A stretch of DNA of 64,000 bases from Actinomycetota bacterium (GTDB taxonomy: Bacteria > Actinomycetota > Actinomycetes > Actinomycetales > Dermatophilaceae): NCBI GenBank assembly GCA_020161815.1, contig JAIUOP010000001.1, forward strand, positions 475,806 through 539,805, read 5' to 3'. The translations under genes and the position numbers were made by a program. This document shows, piece after piece, positions 2 to 63,762 of the stretch. Positions within the stretch are counted from its first letter, which is position 1. Each line of letters starts with the position of its first letter. The notes under the pieces were generated by a model, which saw only the letters and a program-made list of their open reading frames with translations, had not been told where the DNA came from and ran no database searches.

Positions 2-433
2 GAGGCCCGGGCCGCCATGCGCCTGCACCAGATCGCCTTCGCGATGCGCCAGCAGGTCGAGGGGGGTCGCGCCGTGAGCGCCGACGCCCTCGCCAGCCTG
101 GGTGGGTTCGCCCCGCCGACGATGCACTCGATGGGGGCCCGCCTCGCCGGCGCCCTCTCCCGTCGCCTCTACAACGTCGCCATCACCAACGTCCCGGGCC
201 CCCAACGACCCCTGTATGCCGCGGGCGCACCGATGGTGGCGACCTACCCGGTCATGCCGCTCAGTCCCGGGCAGGCCCTCTCGATCGGGCTGACGTCCTA
301 CGACGGGGGCGTCTACTACGGCCTGTATGCCGACCGCGAAGCCTTCCCGGACCTCGATGTCCTGGGCCATGGGATCGCCGATGCCCTCCAGGAGCTGCTC
401 GAGGCCCCGCGCGCACGACGGCGGGCCACCTGA
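2..433 (+). CDS. wax ester synthase/diacylglycerol acyltransferase (WS/DGAT) family protein, C-terminal fragment (5' end outside window)
   Basis: Frame is open from the window edge. C-terminal WS/DGAT-type sequence NVPGPQRPLYAAGAPMVATYPVMPLSPGQALSIGLTSYDGGVYYGL. High GC3. Confidence 0.75.
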   Translation, partial: EARAAMRLHQIAFAMRQQVEGGRAVSADALASLGGFAPPTMHSMGARLAGALSRRLYNVAITNVPGPQRPLYAAGAPMVATYPVMPLSPGQALSIGLTSYDGGVYYGLYADREAFPDLDVLGHGIADALQELLEAPRARRRAT

Positions 434-819
434 TGCCGCTGGCGCGGGCCTACCTCCCCGCCACCCTCGACGACCTCGACGCCCTGGCCGCCACGCGGTC
501 GCTGCCGGTGACGTCCGGGATCGCCGTCGCACCGGGTGCCTCGGAGCAGGTGGAGCACCTCGCGTGGGTCGCAGCCGCGGAGCGCGCCGCCGAGGTCGCC
601 GGTGACCGACGACGCGTCGTCGTGTCCGCCGATGTCGACACCGCGGCCCTCGCGCCGACACCCGCCGCCGAGCCGACCGCCGTGACCCTGGTGACGTCGG
701 TCCCGCTGAAGCGGGTCGTCAGCCTCCACGTGGACGAGGCGCCGGGCTCGGGACTGGGCGACCTGCTCTGGTACGACGTCACCGAGCTCGACCAGGTGCG
801 GGCGCTGCTCTCCCCCTGA
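433..819 (+). CDS. conserved hypothetical protein (128 aa)
   Basis: ATGA start/stop overlap with the upstream CDS, which suggests translational coupling. High GC3. No domain recognised. Confidence 0.55.
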   Translation: MPLARAYLPATLDDLDALAATRSLPVTSGIAVAPGASEQVEHLAWVAAAERAAEVAGDRRRVVVSADVDTAALAPTPAAEPTAVTLVTSVPLKRVVSLHVDEAPGSGLGDLLWYDVTELDQVRALLSP

Positions 820-947
820 CCGGCGGTGCGGTCGGCGCCCGGCCACGGACCGGTATGCCGTCCGCGCGGGTGAGGTGCAGGGCTCGCGCCGGTCACGGGC
901 TCGTGGTCCGCAGCGGGCCAGTCGTGCGTTTCCTCGGCGCATGACAC

Positions 948-61941: not shown

Positions 61942-62046
61942 GCGCCTCGTCACTGTCGCCAAGGTCACGCGGCCGGAGTCGCTCCGAGGCCGGGGCCCTG
62001 CGCGTTCACTACTACGATCGGTAGGAGCAGCTCTCGAGGAGGCACC

Positions 62047-63762
62047 GTGGCCGACGATCCGGCACCGCTCACCCCCGGGGTCCCGGACGACCTGGCTCCC
62101 CTTTCCTCACTCGGCACCGGCCGTCAACGCTCGGGTCCGGTGCGCACCCAGCGCCCGGTCTACGTCGACCTGCTACCCCCCTGCAACGCGGGTTGCCCGG
62201 CCGGGGAGAACATCCAGGCCTGGCTGGCGTTGGCCACCAAGGGCCAGCACGAGGCCGCGTGGCGGCAGCTGACCCAGGACAACCCTTTCCCGGCCATCCA
62301 CGGTCGCGTCTGCTACCACCCCTGTGAAACCGCCTGCAACAGAGGGCTTCTCGACGGGTCGGTCTCGATCCACGCCGTCGAGCGGTTCCTCGGTGACCTC
62401 GCCATCGACCGGGACTGGGCGTTTGCCCATCCGGAGGCCGAGACCGGGCGCCGGGTCCTTGTCGTCGGGAGCGGCCCCAGTGGCCTCTCCGCGGCATACC
62501 ACCTCCGCCGACTGGGCCACAGCGTCGTGTGCCGTGACAACTCGCCTCTCGCGGGCGGCATGATGCGCTACGGCATCCCCTCCTACCGCCTGCCGCGACG
62601 GATCCTCGATGCCGAGATCCGCCGCCTCCACGACCTGGGCGTGGTCTTCGAGCAGGACCACACGGTGACCGACCTCCAGGCCGAGATGGACGCGGGCGGC
62701 TTCGACGCGGCGTTCGTCGCCGTCGGTGCCCACCTCAGCAAGCGCGTCGACATCCCCAACGGTGACGCGAGCCGGGTGCTCGACGCCGTGAGCTTCCTGC
62801 GCGACGTCGAGGCCGGGACCGCCGACGCGGACCTGGGCCGCGTGGCCGTCTATGGCGGTGGCAACACCGCGATGGACGCGGCACGGGTGGCCCGCCGGCT
62901 GGGCGCCGACGACACCGTCATCGTCTATCGCCGCACTCGGGACCAGATGCCTGCGCACGAGGACGAGGCGGCGGACGCGGAGGAGGAGGGCATCCGGATC
63001 AACTGGCTCCGGACGATCGCCTCGATGGGAGAGCACGACCTCACCGTCGAGATCCAGGAACTCGACGAGAGCGGCCGTCCACACGGCACCGGGCGCTACG
63101 AGACCCTCGCCGCCGACACCGTCATCCTCGCCCTGGGCCAGGAGAGCGACACCCGGTTCCTCGCGACCGTGCCCGGCGTCGCCTTCGAGGCGGACGTGGT
63201 CCAGGTCGACCCGGTGACCCTCATGACCGGTGCCCCCGGGATCTTCGCCGGCGGTGACGCCGTGCCGAGCGAACGCACCGTCACCATCGGCGTGGGGCAC
63301 GGCAAGAAGGCGGCCCGCAGCATCGACGCCTACCTGGGCGGAGGTCAGTTCGAGGCGCGCCCCAAGCACCCCAGGGCCGACCTCGACAAGCTGCACCTGT
63401 GGTACTTCGGCGACCACGAGCAGCGCCAGCAGGTCGAGCTGGACCCCGCGCAGCGGGTCAAGGCCTTCGACGAGGTCGTCGCCGGCCTCACTCCGGCCGA
63501 GGCCGTCTTCGAGGCCGGTCGGTGCCTGTCGTGTGGCAACTGCTTCGAGTGCGACGGGTGCCTGGGCTCCTGCCCCGAGGGTGCCGTCATCAAGCTGGGT
63601 CCCGGCCACCGCTATCGCTTCGACTACGACCGGTGCACCGGCTGCTCCTCCTGTGCCCGCCAGTGCCCGGTCCACGCCATCGAGATGATCGGGGAGGCCG
63701 AGCCGTTACCCGACAACGTCTTCCTGCCCGGCGGACCACTGACAAAGCGAGCGGAGCGATGA
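62047..63762 (+). CDS. GltD-like NAD(P)H-dependent flavin oxidoreductase fused to a 2x[4Fe-4S] ferredoxin domain
   Basis: N-terminal Cys cluster, Rossmann motifs VVGSGPSGLSAAY and VYGGGNTAMD, and C-terminal CLSCGNCFECDGC...CTGCSSCARQCP. GTG is preceded by GAGGAGG. Confidence 0.85.
   Translation: MADDPAPLTPGVPDDLAPLSSLGTGRQRSGPVRTQRPVYVDLLPPCNAGCPAGENIQAWLALATKGQHEAAWRQLTQDNPFPAIHGRVCYHPCETACNRGLLDGSVSIHAVERFLGDLAIDRDWAFAHPEAETGRRVLVVGSGPSGLSAAYHLRRLGHSVVCRDNSPLAGGMMRYGIPSYRLPRRILDAEIRRLHDLGVVFEQDHTVTDLQAEMDAGGFDAAFVAVGAHLSKRVDIPNGDASRVLDAVSFLRDVEAGTADADLGRVAVYGGGNTAMDAARVARRLGADDTVIVYRRTRDQMPAHEDEAADAEEEGIRINWLRTIASMGEHDLTVEIQELDESGRPHGTGRYETLAADTVILALGQESDTRFLATVPGVAFEADVVQVDPVTLMTGAPGIFAGGDAVPSERTVTIGVGHGKKAARSIDAYLGGGQFEARPKHPRADLDKLHLWYFGDHEQRQQVELDPAQRVKAFDEVVAGLTPAEAVFEAGRCLSCGNCFECDGCLGSCPEGAVIKLGPGHRYRFDYDRCTGCSSCARQCPVHAIEMIGEAEPLPDNVFLPGGPLTKRAER

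Follow-up and report, generated by a model that had tools for sequence, protein, structure and literature searches.

The window, by which we mean the whole 64-kb stretch of DNA analyzed here, belongs to the chromosome of an uncultured member of the Dermatophilaceae (Intrasporangiaceae). Throughout its genes and gaps lie copies of a short word, GTATGCCG (on the other strand, CGGCATAC). Exact search found 62 copies, with 32 on the plus strand and 30 on the minus strand. These are the numbers given by a sequence-only reading of the same DNA (about 62), whose coordinates were also all correct. Our analysis covered the window together with ~20-kb loci of other genomes.

Besides its non-coding copies, the word is read in five coding contexts. 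Tyr-Ala is encoded by 28 of the 47 coding copies. Those on the plus strand lie in a WS/DGAT-C gene (2-433) at 214-221 (cTG TAT GCC Gcg, L-Y-A-A) and 325-332 (LYAD); gene 4343-5857 at 5803-5810 (AYAA); a large NAD-glutamate dehydrogenase (NAD-GDH) gene at 9116-9123 (SYAE), 10001-10008 (RYAA), and 10670-10677 (LYAV); trpS at 13587-13594 (RYAA); a LigT-like gene at 14140-14147 (PYAD); deoA at 22853-22860 (D-A-Y-A-V); add at 24256-24263 (GYAA); a SpoIIM-like gene at 26256-26263 (GYAA); a Ser/Thr kinase gene at 52360-52367 (LYAA); a tryptophan 2,3-dioxygenase gene at 57159-57166 (LYAV); a PfkB kinase gene at 57338-57345 (RYAA); and a carboxyltransferase gene at 61287-61294 (LYAG). Those on the minus strand lie in minus-strand gene 16875-18485 at 17294-17301 (WYAA) and 17432-17439 (VYAA); an RDD gene at 24737-24744 (T-Y-A-V); a DUF58 gene at 26553-26560 (A-Y-A-A); a DUF4350 gene (minus strand) at 29054-29061 (AYAV); a short Aldedh gene at 33275-33282 (WYAG) and 33554-33561 (VYAA); an aldehyde dehydrogenase gene at 34693-34700 (AYAG); a phosphomutase gene (minus strand) at 40036-40043 (AYAV); an ABC ATPase gene at 42475-42482 (VYAG); an ABC permease gene at 43987-43994 (AYAV); an acyl-CoA carboxylase alpha gene at 47660-47667 (AYAG); and a VWA (MadC-like) gene at 53944-53951 (RYAV).

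Elsewhere the coding strand reads Ala-Tyr (GCA TAC). Minus-strand copies of this kind are found in pruA at 1392-1399 (ACG GCA TAC, T-A-Y), the NAD-GDH gene at 7570-7577 (T-A-Y-E), trpS at 13508-13515 (A-A-Y-V), the PfkB gene at 57937-57944 (T-A-Y-V), the carboxyltransferase gene at 60434-60441 (A-A-Y-E), and a GltD-like oxidoreductase gene at 62492-62499 (A-A-Y-H). Plus-strand copies are found in the short Aldedh gene at 33426-33433 (T-A-Y-N), the aldehyde dehydrogenase gene at 34904-34911 (T-A-Y-T), the phosphomutase gene at 38816-38823 (T-A-Y-E) and 40196-40203 (T-A-Y-L), and a minus-strand VWA gene at 49346-49353 (A-A-Y-G). Gly-Ile with the rare codon ATA is read in gene 4343-5857 at 4987-4994 (-; GGC ATA CCG, G-I-P), a BrkB-family gene at 14999-15006 (-; GGC ATA CGG, D-G-I-R), the DUF4350 gene at 28823-28830 (+; GGC ATA CCG, H-G-I-P) and 29738-29745 (+; GGC ATA CGC, S-G-I-R), and an AAA ATPase gene at 55530-55537 (+; GGC ATA CCG, R-G-I-P). 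GGT ATG CCG occurs in gene 4343-5857 at 4836-4843 (+; G-M-P) and the VWA gene at 49403-49410 (-; G-M-P-W), and the AAA ATPase gene carries the sole copy in the frame GTA TGC CGT, at 55478-55485 (-; V-C-R).

Truly non-coding copies number 11, and the non-coding share of copies is ~16-19%; the word is enriched 1.7-fold in non-coding DNA (P = 0.007). Copies lie between the DUF6912 gene and pruA (853-860, +) and between the acyl-CoA dehydrogenase and carboxyltransferase genes (60305-60312, +), both in the extended form GTATGCCGTCCGC; upstream of deoA (21793-21800, -), ending 7 nt before its start at 21807; between a PNP gene start and the ABC ATPase stop (41369-41376, +); in the 19-nt spacer of two ABC transporter genes (44313-44320, +); 17 nt upstream of the acyl-CoA carboxylase alpha start (49051-49058, +); and upstream of the tryptophan 2,3-dioxygenase gene (56295-56302, -). 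Two copies overlap start codons, as the earlier reading had noted: one at a MarR-family gene (19386-19393, +) spans ATG 19388 (M-P-S-A-H...), and one at the acyl-CoA dehydrogenase gene (59065-59072, +) reads GTATGCC-GTG, with GTG at 59072. In a convergent-gene gap, copies at 47173-47180 (+) and 47233-47240 (-) form an inverted pair (GTATGCCGTG ... CACGGCATAC) adjoining a 17-bp terminator-like hairpin (47196-47234), whose 3' arm is overlapped 2 nt by the right-hand copy. Such pairs with hairpins occur in at least two places, the other being locus L109 (hairpin ΔG, -60.9 kcal/mol), but inverted word pairs are few overall.

The copies at 31776, 31818, 31860, and 31902 sit in a single 42-bp tandem repeat on the minus strand (31733-31931; 4.7 units of PPPPYAAPPGFGSA). 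The sequence-only reading had placed these four correctly. They are coding (the N terminus of a DUF7847 protein), not intergenic, and represent one event, which leaves 59 independent copies. Since the repeat accounts for just 4 of the 62 copies and flanks are diverse, the claim of independent loci stands.

Abundance and form of the word

The word is far more frequent than expected under nulls that do not already contain it. Dinucleotide-preserving shuffles gave a mean of 0.89 copies (maximum, 3), and Markov models of orders 1, 2, and 3 predicted 0.8, 1.2, and 3.2 copies. Expectations rise to between 17 and 59 at orders 4 to 6 only because the sub-words that feed these models come from the word itself, which contains 62 of the 74 GTAT tetramers in the window and 62 of the 67 occurrences of TATGCCG. 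Against the 47 coding copies, within-gene shuffling of synonymous codons yielded 4.1 ± 2.0 (maximum, 10), and shuffling codon order yielded 1.5. Among all k-mers of 6 to 10 bases, the word and its sub- and superstrings were the sole outliers in the window.

The word extends beyond the octamer first described. In 156 pooled copies, position +9 is a pyrimidine (Y) in 130 (24 of 25 non-coding copies), position +10 is G in 105 (21 of 25 non-coding), and position -1 is almost never A, giving the fuller form [not A]-GTATGCCG-Y-G. This flank signal is strongest where the DNA is unconstrained. With these flanks the word spans 8-10 bases.

As the earlier reading had held, the word is not a protein motif: besides its five coding contexts and non-coding copies, nulls that take codons into account fall short of the count more than 10-fold, and where the window has the word, orthologous proteins of other genera show different residues. 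The predicted use of rare codons was also borne out. In the context G-TAY-GCC-G, tyrosine is encoded by TAT 28 times and by TAC once, whereas TAT makes up 13% of Tyr codons outside it; five of the seven ATA codons in the window fall inside the word. Tyr codon usage is distorted (TAT share, 25% versus 2-3%).

Strands are balanced and interspersed in all word-rich genomes compared (window, 32:30; Knoellia, 11:10; Pedococcus, 6:6; Nostocoides, 10:8). Spacing is near-Poisson (CV 0.85), with no significant excess of evenness over a random placement (P = 0.14).

Conservation, turnover, and distribution

The word is a DNA-level feature and is actively maintained. At 78% nucleotide identity, 13 of 15 word sites were retained, compared with ~20% of control octamers, a result in favor of the earlier suggestion that the DNA word as such is the target. 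Two assemblies of the same species, made independently and with different assemblers, have identical window copies, among them the one at 21793. The word at the MarR-family start (19388) is also present in a metagenome relative (L123). Between genera, sites turn over: in a first comparison, none of five window copies was common to Knoellia or Pedococcus.

Word copies arise by substitution at orthologous sites, including amino-acid replacements and rare codons. Many differ from orthologous non-word sequence at three to five positions, amino-acid changes included, while between close relatives many differences at word sites consist of one transition or transversion, at position 4 (GTACGCCG, GTAGGCCG). 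At the deoA site (22853), Knoellia-clade orthologues read D-A-L-K/Q-V and Ornithinicoccus reads D-A-L-A-V; Phycicoccus and MAG86 keep Y-A, written as CTACGCCG. The add site (24256) carries the word in six taxa from both subclades and GTACGCCG or CTACGCCG in word-free taxa. Orthologues have T-Y-V-V (TAC GTC) for T-Y-A-V at the RDD site (24737), and A-Y-D-A for A-Y-A-A at the DUF58 site (26553).

A density of ~1 per kb on both strands characterizes a group of high-GC actinobacteria. Word-rich genomes have 0.84 copies per kb; across 1.27 Mb of loci from other actinobacteria with comparable GC, the figure is 0.014 per kb, so that the word is enriched ~60-fold. Knoellia, Pedococcus, Nostocoides (Tetrasphaera), Ornithinibacter, and Oryzihumus have 0.2-1.4 per kb; the word is thus present in related genera and absent beyond the family in the loci compared. 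The window, Knoellia, and the 88-91% relatives invariably have C at position 6, and a relaxed dialect, GTATGNCG, is used in Nostocoides, Ornithinicoccus, and MAG L003. Phycicoccus is word-free and nested among word-rich genera, and reads GTACGCCG or CTACGCCG at ancestral word sites. In word-rich genomes, the synonymous neighbor GTACGCCG is depleted 3-fold (7 observed versus ~21 expected), and other one-mismatch neighbors are mildly depleted (0.7-0.8) or enriched. The one phage compared, TJE1 (virulent; 58% GC; host, the word-rich N. jenkinsii), shows no enrichment, with 2 copies in 49 kb against 0.94 expected.

A candidate transfer signal and its alternatives

Neisseria and Haemophilus carry DNA-uptake sequences, a kind of signal not described in this phylum, and the word resembles these. 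We tentatively favor a DUS/USS-like transfer bias as the force that spreads and maintains it, a view drawn from sequence comparison. Under this proposal, GTATGCCG would be a lineage-specific DNA signal recognized by a putative sequence-specific dsDNA-reading protein of Dermatophilaceae. Fragments with the word would be favored in uptake during natural transformation, or otherwise in transfer or recombination, so that alleles gaining it by point mutation would displace word-less alleles, and those losing it would be displaced in turn. Purifying selection on proteins would restrict the word to non-coding DNA and the cheapest frames, n-TAT-GCC-G (Tyr-Ala) and GCA-TAC (Ala-Tyr). Where the reader was lost (putatively Phycicoccus and MAG L088), GC pressure would erode the word, TAT becoming TAC; the patchy distribution fits the loss of a dispensable reader.

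Several features agree with such a bias. Among them are the spread of copies over several frames and non-coding DNA, their origin by substitution, the strong retention of sites in close relatives together with turnover between genera, the dialects, and the inverted pairs at terminator-like hairpins. Density resembles that of DUS/USS, strand balance is that of DUS and HIP1 and unlike Chi or KOPS (the strand test set out in the sequence-only reading), and DUS are likewise scarce on mobile elements, as the word is in TJE1. Other features differ: approximately half of DUS/USS copies are reported at terminators, whereas the word is ~16-19% non-coding with few inverted pairs, and the ratio of perfect to one-mismatch copies is much lower for USS than for the word. 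The same order offers a precedent: Micrococcus luteus is naturally transformable via Flp/Tad pili and ComEA/ComEC, a gene combination frequent in actinobacteria (PMC4322843).

Conservation, over-representation, and frame preference have, for HIP1, been read as signatures of selection for a chromosomal function (PMC5861425). The word might similarly be the binding site of an abundant lineage-specific protein (a nucleoid-associated, condensation, segregation, or repair factor), kept by ordinary selection without transfer bias. We consider this possible but rather doubtful. Xu et al. argued likewise for HIP1 from site conservation well over background, and a 60-fold enrichment falls within HIP1's reported 15-300-fold range (PMC5861425); copies are mostly intragenic, the terminator link is not strong, and dialects and losses could arise if the word co-evolved with its binding protein or if that protein was lost. 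However, at thousands of sites the per-site benefit would have to exceed the cost of replaced amino acids and rare codons, and the word is completely erased in lineages nested in the clade and is therefore dispensable. Its spacing is no more even than chance, it is non-palindromic whereas HIP1 is palindromic, and no candidate binding protein is known.

Biased repair or gene conversion appears improbable. Here a lineage-specific mismatch enzyme, such as a Vsr-like endonuclease or glycosylase, possibly with a methyltransferase, would resolve near-cognate mismatches toward the word, turning replication errors and heteroduplexes into copies. The depletion of GTACGCCG, the near-complete replacement of TAC by TAT in the exact context, and the frequent position-4 changes between close relatives all point this way. 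Known very-short-patch systems, however, fix one mismatch type at one position with modest bias, whereas all 8-10 positions of the word are fixed and many copies lie several changes, amino acids included, from their orthologues. Against it too are the mild or absent depletion of other neighbors, the lack of enrichment in TJE1, and the absence of a Vsr or methyltransferase gene within the 64-kb window.

More improbable still is a Chi-like self mark that attenuates a helicase-nuclease (AdnAB/RecBCD type) or another DNA-degrading defense, by which word-bearing DNA would survive and recombine better; recombination of incoming linear DNA would then be biased, which would act as a drive, and the word would also serve as a repair signal. 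Chi sequences are short (5-8 nt), lineage-specific, over-represented, and co-evolve with their reader, and the word matches them in length, lineage specificity, and dialects; a word-poor phage would be foreign DNA left vulnerable. Yet enrichment of Chi words is a few-fold, against 60-fold here, and Chi and KOPS are strongly co-oriented with replication, unlike the interspersed, balanced word. Phages often gain Chi-like protection, which TJE1 lacks.

An artefact or trivial cause is refuted by the tests made. Although four copies come from one repeat, flanks of the copies are unrelated, which excludes a single dispersed repeat family; despite the share of Tyr-Ala among coding copies, that dipeptide is merely 1.2-fold over expectation, with the 28:1 codon choice within it, and codon-aware nulls yield 1.5-4 copies versus 47 observed. 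Carry-over of the Illumina P7 adapter, which contains CGTATGCCGTCTTCTGCTTG and of which the word is an 8-base substring, fails because the longest contiguous match is 13 of 24 nt, with most copies extending 0-1 nt past the word, and because copies lie in frame within conserved housekeeping genes, recur in the independently assembled same-species genome, and are also present in several genera whose genomes come from isolates. We found no earlier description of the word in the literature, in agreement with the sequence-only reading, which was aware of none for actinobacteria; because of the adapter, literature matches to it are thousands of method papers.

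Word abundance beyond composition and codon usage

The octamer GTATGCCG (reverse complement CGGCATAC) occurs 62 times in the window, 32 times as GTATGCCG and 30 times as CGGCATAC; our exact search matched every copy coordinate from an earlier, sequence-only reading. In DNA of 71.7% G+C, such a density of a non-palindromic word, about one copy per kb, is far above composition (62 in 64 kb versus 0.9 to 4 expected). Dinucleotide-preserving shuffles yielded 0.89 copies (maximum 3), and Markov models of orders 1, 2 and 3 predict 0.8, 1.2 and 3.2 copies, respectively. Higher orders come near the observed count because the word supplies its own sub-words. 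Of 74 GTAT tetramers in the window, 62 lie inside the word, as do 62 of 67 TATGCCG heptamers. At k = 6 to 10 the only outliers were the word and its sub- and super-strings.

Gene calling by position-specific GC content gave 56 genes covering 92% of the window, with 47 copies inside them. Synonymous-codon shuffling within each gene, under which protein sequences and codon usage stay unchanged and even the rare codons of the word are preserved, left 4.1 ± 2.0 copies (maximum 10), and shuffling of codon order left 1.5, versus the 47 observed. These copies are read in five contexts on the coding strand: n-TAT-GCC-G (Tyr-Ala, 28 copies), GCA-TAC (Ala-Tyr, 11), GGC-ATA-C (Gly-Ile, 5), GGT-ATG-CCG (Gly-Met-Pro, 2) and GTA-TGC-CG (Val-Cys-Arg, 1). 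A protein motif, which the sequence-only reading had already denied, is ruled out together with codon-pair bias by both shuffles, by the several frames and by differences between orthologues. An RNA-level motif is rejected, since copies face both with and against transcription, in coding as in non-coding DNA. Neither Rfam families nor tRNAs were found in the window. The word is a DNA-level feature.

Rare codons are forced by the word, as had been claimed: in the exact G-TAY-GCC-G context TAT outnumbers TAC by 28 to 1 (elsewhere in the window TAT makes up 13% of Tyr codons), and five of the seven ATA codons in the window fall inside the word. Codon usage and the proteome are measurably distorted in word-rich genomes. 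TAT accounts for 25% of Tyr codons there versus 2 to 3% in word-free genomes, GCA for 5.6% versus 2.1 to 2.4% of Ala codons, and the observed/expected ratio of the Tyr-Ala dipeptide is 1.21 versus 0.90 to 0.92. Such distortion of TAT, GCA and ATA usage and of Tyr-Ala frequency matters for codon-based inference.

Independence and placement of copies

Four copies (31776-31902) lie within a 42-bp coding tandem repeat (31733-31931, minus strand; 4.7 units, 92% matches) that encodes PPPPYAAPPGFGSA, with one word copy per unit, at the N-terminus of a DUF7847/DUF7544 membrane-type protein (gene at about 30607-32010). This repeat amplified the word. Because it is a single tandem repeat, we count it as one event, giving 59 independent copies. 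Most copies are independent, as the sequence-only reading had assumed: their flanks are unrelated and the tandem, the only repeated element to contribute, supplies 4 of the 62, which excludes a single element as their source. REP, MITE or other dispersed repeats are likewise rejected, given flanks unrelated beyond about +5, a coding share of 81% among independent copies, and gapless orthologue alignments.

Eleven of the independent copies are non-coding, and two of these run across the start codons at 19388 and 59072. Non-coding DNA makes up 9.6% of the sequence and accounts for 16% of copies, a 1.7-fold enrichment (P = 0.007). The start of a MarR-family gene, M-P-S-A-H (GT-ATG-CCG-TCC-GCC-CAC), bears the word both in the window (19386-19410) and in a metagenome relative (L123, 4779-4838), where three tandem copies of this 26-nt start region follow an AAGGAGG ribosome-binding site.

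The word also has preferred flanks. When the copies of nine word-rich loci are pooled (156 in all), 130 carry a pyrimidine at +9 and 105 a G at +10, and just 3 have A at -1. The non-coding subset of 25 has a pyrimidine at +9 in 24 copies, G at +10 in 21 and G at +12 in 17. From these non-coding preferences, the unconstrained form is about GTATGCCGYGNG, and the word is longer than eight bases.

Copy spacing in the window is approximately random (CV 0.85, P = 0.14), so that regular spacing is not significant, and orientations are interspersed. Close word pairs number 4, compared with about 5.5 expected from the window gaps, and show no excess. One inverted pair (47173/47233) lies between convergent genes, and its right member shares 2 nt with the 3' arm of a 17-bp terminator-like hairpin. 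Two large, consecutive hairpins occupy this space between the convergent lpdA-like and acyl-CoA carboxylase alpha genes, one (47077-47160) a 41-nt-arm inverted repeat with 83% complementarity and a 2-nt loop, the other (47196-47234) a 17-bp stem at 94%; neither has an Rfam match. In L109, a metagenome contig of GC 0.69, two inverted word pairs form a nested hairpin (833-925; dG -60.9 kcal/mol, z = -9.8) immediately past the stop codon of a gene whose product ends in FLRFKVGI, EF-Ts-like by eye, and a fifth copy follows 20 nt past it.

The Illumina P7 adapter (CGTATGCCGTCTTCTGCTTG) contains the word, for which reason literature searches for it return thousands of irrelevant hits. Adapter contamination is rejected on three grounds. 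Flanks do not follow the adapter: no copy matches it over more than 13 contiguous nt of 24, and in most the match reaches 0 to 1 nt past the word. Copies lie in frame in housekeeping genes (pruA, trpS, deoA, add, acyl-CoA carboxylase subunits and the large NAD-GDH). Two independent metagenome assemblies of the same species, 99.8 to 99.9% identical to the window, have all four overlap copies in common with it. Thirteen window copies read GTATGCCGTC (for example at 853, 4836, 19386, 34904 and 60305) and so contain ATGCCGTC, the first eight bases of the Neisseria 12-mer AT-DUS (ATGCCGTCTGAA). The overlaps with the P7 adapter and with AT-DUS both look coincidental. Nevertheless, aggressive adapter trimming could bias reads from word-rich genomes.

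Distribution among related genera

The thymidine phosphorylase of the window has 100% identity matches in metagenome contigs only; its nearest named relatives, at 82 to 86%, are Ornithinibacter, Tetrasphaera/Nostocoides, Knoellia, Phycicoccus, Oryzihumus and Pedococcus. These matches place the source among uncultured Dermatophilaceae (Intrasporangiaceae); an exact look-up of the window's TrpS gave no match, and the retrieved GTDB representatives do not include the species. We counted the word in loci around this gene for thymidine phosphorylase (deoA). Loci of 21 kb held 21 copies in Knoellia koreensis, 18 in Nostocoides australiense, 16 in N. jenkinsii, 12 in Pedococcus bigeumensis, 8 in an Ornithinibacter MAG and 5 in Oryzihumus. 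Metagenome relatives with 91% and 88% DeoA identity held 13 copies in 17 kb and 16 in 11 kb, respectively, and Ornithinimicrobium and Ornithinicoccus 2 to 3 copies in 7 to 21 kb. Four loci of 17 to 21 kb each had none: Phycicoccus jejuensis, Phycicoccus sp. BSK3Z-2, and the MAGs L088 and L004. Local densities across 10 related genomes range from 0.2 to 1.4 per kb. The 12-kb metagenome contig L200 (GC 0.66, below other word-rich genomes) has 26 copies, or 2.2 per kb, the highest density that we saw.

By comparison, other actinobacteria of similar GC (63 loci, 1.27 Mb, from Streptomyces, Cellulomonas, Nocardioides, Aeromicrobium, Arthrobacter and others) average 0.014 per kb, versus 0.84 in word-rich genomes, a 60-fold difference. 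Conservation of the word in related genera, which the sequence-only reading had left to be examined, is borne out in Knoellia, Nostocoides, Pedococcus and others. The strand balance that it had also singled out as diagnostic holds: 32:30 and interspersed over 64 kb, and 11:10, 6:6, 10:8, 9:7, 6:10 and 5:8 in local stretches of relatives. On these stretches both orientations are about equal and replication polarity is not seen.

In a rough tree of six syntenic proteins, word-rich genera fall in both main subclades of the family, and the word-free Phycicoccus pair is nested beside Ornithinibacter. Two Nostocoides species, Ornithinicoccus and the MAG L003 use a relaxed dialect, GTATGNCG. Position 6 is C in 16, G in 9 and T in 2 cases in N. 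jenkinsii; C in 18, G in 4 and A in 4 in N. australiense; G in 5, C in 4 and T in 3 in L003; and A in 4, G in 3 and C in 2 in Ornithinicoccus. Only C occurs at this position in Knoellia and the clade of the window. Dialects follow phylogeny. The word is therefore restricted to one family, has dialects there, and has been lost completely in nested lineages.

Gain, retention and loss at orthologous sites

Codon alignments of syntenic orthologues are gapless at word sites, and therefore copies arise by substitution, not insertion. In a first comparison, none of five window coding copies was common with Knoellia or Pedococcus, while these two have several in common with each other. Of 10 sites compared between the window and its relatives at 91% and 88%, 4 are common to all three and the rest differ by one to three bases. 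Word gain can replace amino acids: in deoA the window and closer relatives have D-A-Y-A-V where the Knoellia clade has D-A-L-K/Q-V, other gains pair T-Y-A-V with T-Y-V-V and A-Y-A-A with A-Y-D-A, and a Knoellia gain gives D-G-I(ATA)-L versus D-G-V-L. Synonymous gains (TAC to TAT, GCC to GCA) also occur.

Retention was assessed with a test modeled on HIP1 work, in which word sites were compared with control octamers at 78% nucleotide identity. Control octamers were identical in about 20% of cases, whereas window word sites were kept in 5 of 7 (P = 0.004) and 8 of 8 cases (P = 3e-6) in two close relatives. Together, 13 of 15 sites were retained, in keeping with the sequence-only reading that selection or biased repair acts on the DNA word itself. 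In word-free genomes, 0 of 16 were kept. The word is thus maintained actively, site by site, yet turns over. At old sites, present in six taxa of both subclades, the word-free Phycicoccus and MAG L088 have GTACGCCG or CTACGCCG, the word having decayed there to the GC-richer synonym. GTACGCCG is 3-fold depleted in word-rich genomes.

Comparison with known DNA words

DNA uptake sequences (DUS) of Neisseriaceae are 10- to 12-mers, for example AT-GCCGTCTGAA, and their receptor is the minor pilin ComP; for uptake sequences in general (DUS and USS) the receptors named are ComP and a predicted ComN. Like them, the word is short and non-palindromic, occurs about once per kb on both strands, in permissive frames of genes and between genes, and includes inverted pairs able to form terminator-like hairpins; its resemblance to the AT-DUS start in 13 window copies (ATGCCGTC within GTATGCCGTC) looks coincidental, as noted above. 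Its lineage-specific dialects track phylogeny, as DUS dialects do (PMC3630211). DUS are also scarce on mobile elements, and the word may be so too, going by the one phage counted, TJE1. In contrast, the word's host is a high-GC Gram-positive of another phylum, without a known type IV pilus or ComP, and the word lacks the core CTG. About half of DUS and USS copies lie in terminators or other non-coding DNA according to the literature, whereas the word is 16 to 19% non-coding, with few hairpins and no frequent inverted pairs as terminators.

The word's placement also bears a protein cost: permissive places are favored (non-coding enrichment, frame preference), and rare codons and amino-acid replacements accompany it. 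The USS of Pasteurellaceae has a 9-bp core, AAGTGCGGT, plus flanking preferences. It likewise combines a strict core with weaker flanks (for the word, +9 Y, +10 G and -1 not A), about one copy per kb, and genic copies at poorly constrained positions with an amino-acid cost. A mutation-plus-drive equilibrium, associated with Redfield and colleagues, is reportedly the accepted explanation for USS. The word differs from USS in that its perfect copies are far more numerous relative to one-mismatch variants, and in being an AT-containing word in a GC-rich host.

HIP1 (GCGATCGC), a cyanobacterial octamer 15- to 300-fold over-represented in and between genes, has sites conserved above background and a function that is unknown after decades of study (PMC5861425; PMC4390886). 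The word resembles it as a genic and intergenic octamer within this range (60-fold), with sites kept above background (13 of 15 versus about 20%). However, HIP1 is a palindrome with methyltransferases recognizing its sub-sites, whereas the word is asymmetric, GTATGCCG differing from CGGCATAC, and has no known methyltransferase link. HIP1 periodicity spans 10 to 90 kb, and the window only 64 kb.

Polar words include Chi (RecBCD/AddAB) and KOPS/SRS (FtsK/SpoIIIE gamma domain), and Vogelmann et al. 2011 reportedly described 8-bp TraB recognition sequences in Streptomyces plasmid clt loci. These are 5 to 8 bp long, lineage-specific and co-evolving with a translocase or nuclease reader. Chi and KOPS are strongly strand-skewed, co-oriented with replication and modestly enriched, whereas the word is unskewed and 60-fold enriched, and Chi/KOPS-type polarity is rejected on this strand balance. 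TraB/clt-type arrays are also rejected: one metagenome scan for triplets of copies lying no more than 30 nt apart found no tight array next to a translocase gene. The scan returned mostly unrelated tandem repeats, and word-rich contigs gave coding tandems, short non-coding tandems and hairpins only; it also recovered further word-rich contigs, with up to 2.2 copies per kb. One array on contig L116 (5895-6247) has nine copies in an inverted array of 31-nt repeats (5 + 4 by strand) between convergent genes. Because this contig lacks dispersed copies, the repeat in L116 is probably unrelated and includes the octamer by chance; a binding-site array is the less likely alternative.

Interpretation

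A DNA-level word that is maintained, turns over, is restricted to one family, has dialects and is lost in some lineages leads us to infer a putative sequence-specific reader protein, which would be dispensable and evolving. The most economical mechanism by analogy is a transfer-bias drive of the DUS/USS type, which we favor tentatively. Word-bearing fragments would be preferentially taken up, transferred or recombined, so that word-creating mutations would spread, word-destroying mutations would be replaced, and protein constraints would set where copies can settle. This step is suggested by the close match to uptake-sequence signatures, by transformation through Flp/Tad pili in another member of the Micrococcales (M. 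luteus, with ComEA/ComEC; PMC4322843), and by phage without word enrichment. The virulent phage TJE1, the one phage counted, has 2 copies in 49 kb (0.94 expected), and its word-rich host N. jenkinsii has 28 GTATGNCG in 21 kb. With two bait proteins, no Dermatophilaceae plasmids were found in PLSDB.

Against transfer bias stand the few copies in terminators and the case of HIP1, which has the same statistical signatures and is read as selection for a chromosomal function (PMC5861425). A putative selected binding site of the HIP1 kind, consistent with retention of sites above background, is accordingly the nearest competitor, although an unlikely one. Sequence-specific biased repair, which would likewise act on the word itself, is improbable. 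Methyltransferase, Vsr-type and competence genes were not found in the 64-kb window. A Chi-like self mark would share short length and lineage specificity with the word and fits poorly with its strand balance, making it very improbable, and the remaining probability falls to some other explanation.

Under transfer bias, GTATGCCG(YG) might be a genuine uptake or transfer specificity sequence, of a third independent origin and the first in Actinobacteria or any Gram-positive; we consider this possible but doubtful. If true, natural transformation that is frequent and favors self DNA would be expected in Dermatophilaceae, among them the wastewater polyphosphate accumulators Tetrasphaera/Nostocoides, along with a putative receptor possibly linked to Flp/Tad pili and dialects that act as barriers between genera. 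In the literature searched, uptake sequences are confined to two Gram-negative families and HIP1 to cyanobacteria, and a late-2025 survey confines uptake-enhancing sequences to Neisseriaceae and Pasteurellaceae. Surveys of abundant oligonucleotides, HIPs and spaced motifs mention neither the word nor these genera. Within an incomplete searchable literature we found no prior description of it, or of any hyper-abundant word in these genera, in line with the sequence-only reading, which knew of no such actinobacterial word.

Hyper-abundant lineage-specific DNA words are rare. The word belongs with them, and would be the first for its phylum if proved an uptake signal. If high-GC actinobacteria do supply a third, unrelated case, drives that spread a word through a whole genome would prove to be more general. 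The word-free Phycicoccus, nested among word-rich genera, constitutes a natural loss experiment, so phylogenetic profiling could identify the reader gene. Several cultured word-rich species (Knoellia, Pedococcus, Nostocoides jenkinsii and N. australiense) make direct tests feasible. The word could also raise the transformation efficiency of poorly tractable wastewater and soil bacteria, and could serve as a taxonomic or binning marker for Dermatophilaceae contigs and flag foreign DNA in them.

Other features of the window

The largest word-free gap (34904-38816) holds a DUF222 and HNH endonuclease gene with a weak coding signal (36243-37406, minus strand) and, after it, about 1.4 kb where such signal is weak or absent (to 38791); the stretch 36243-38791 may be a recent insertion. 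An HNH gene is also inserted in the syntenic region of P. jejuensis (locus L089, 15111-16559). A possible defense- or stress-type cluster (49289-56151) encodes a VWA protein, an HTH protein, a Ser/Thr kinase with weak MADS6/PglW-like hits, a MadC-like VWA protein (match below cut-off), an AAA ATPase, an Xre HTH protein and a small protein. Two adjacent aldehyde dehydrogenase genes occur at 32742-33632 and 33671-35119. The first is short (about 296 aa) and matches only the N-terminal half of the family, and this short-plus-full pair is conserved in the relatives L087 and L091.
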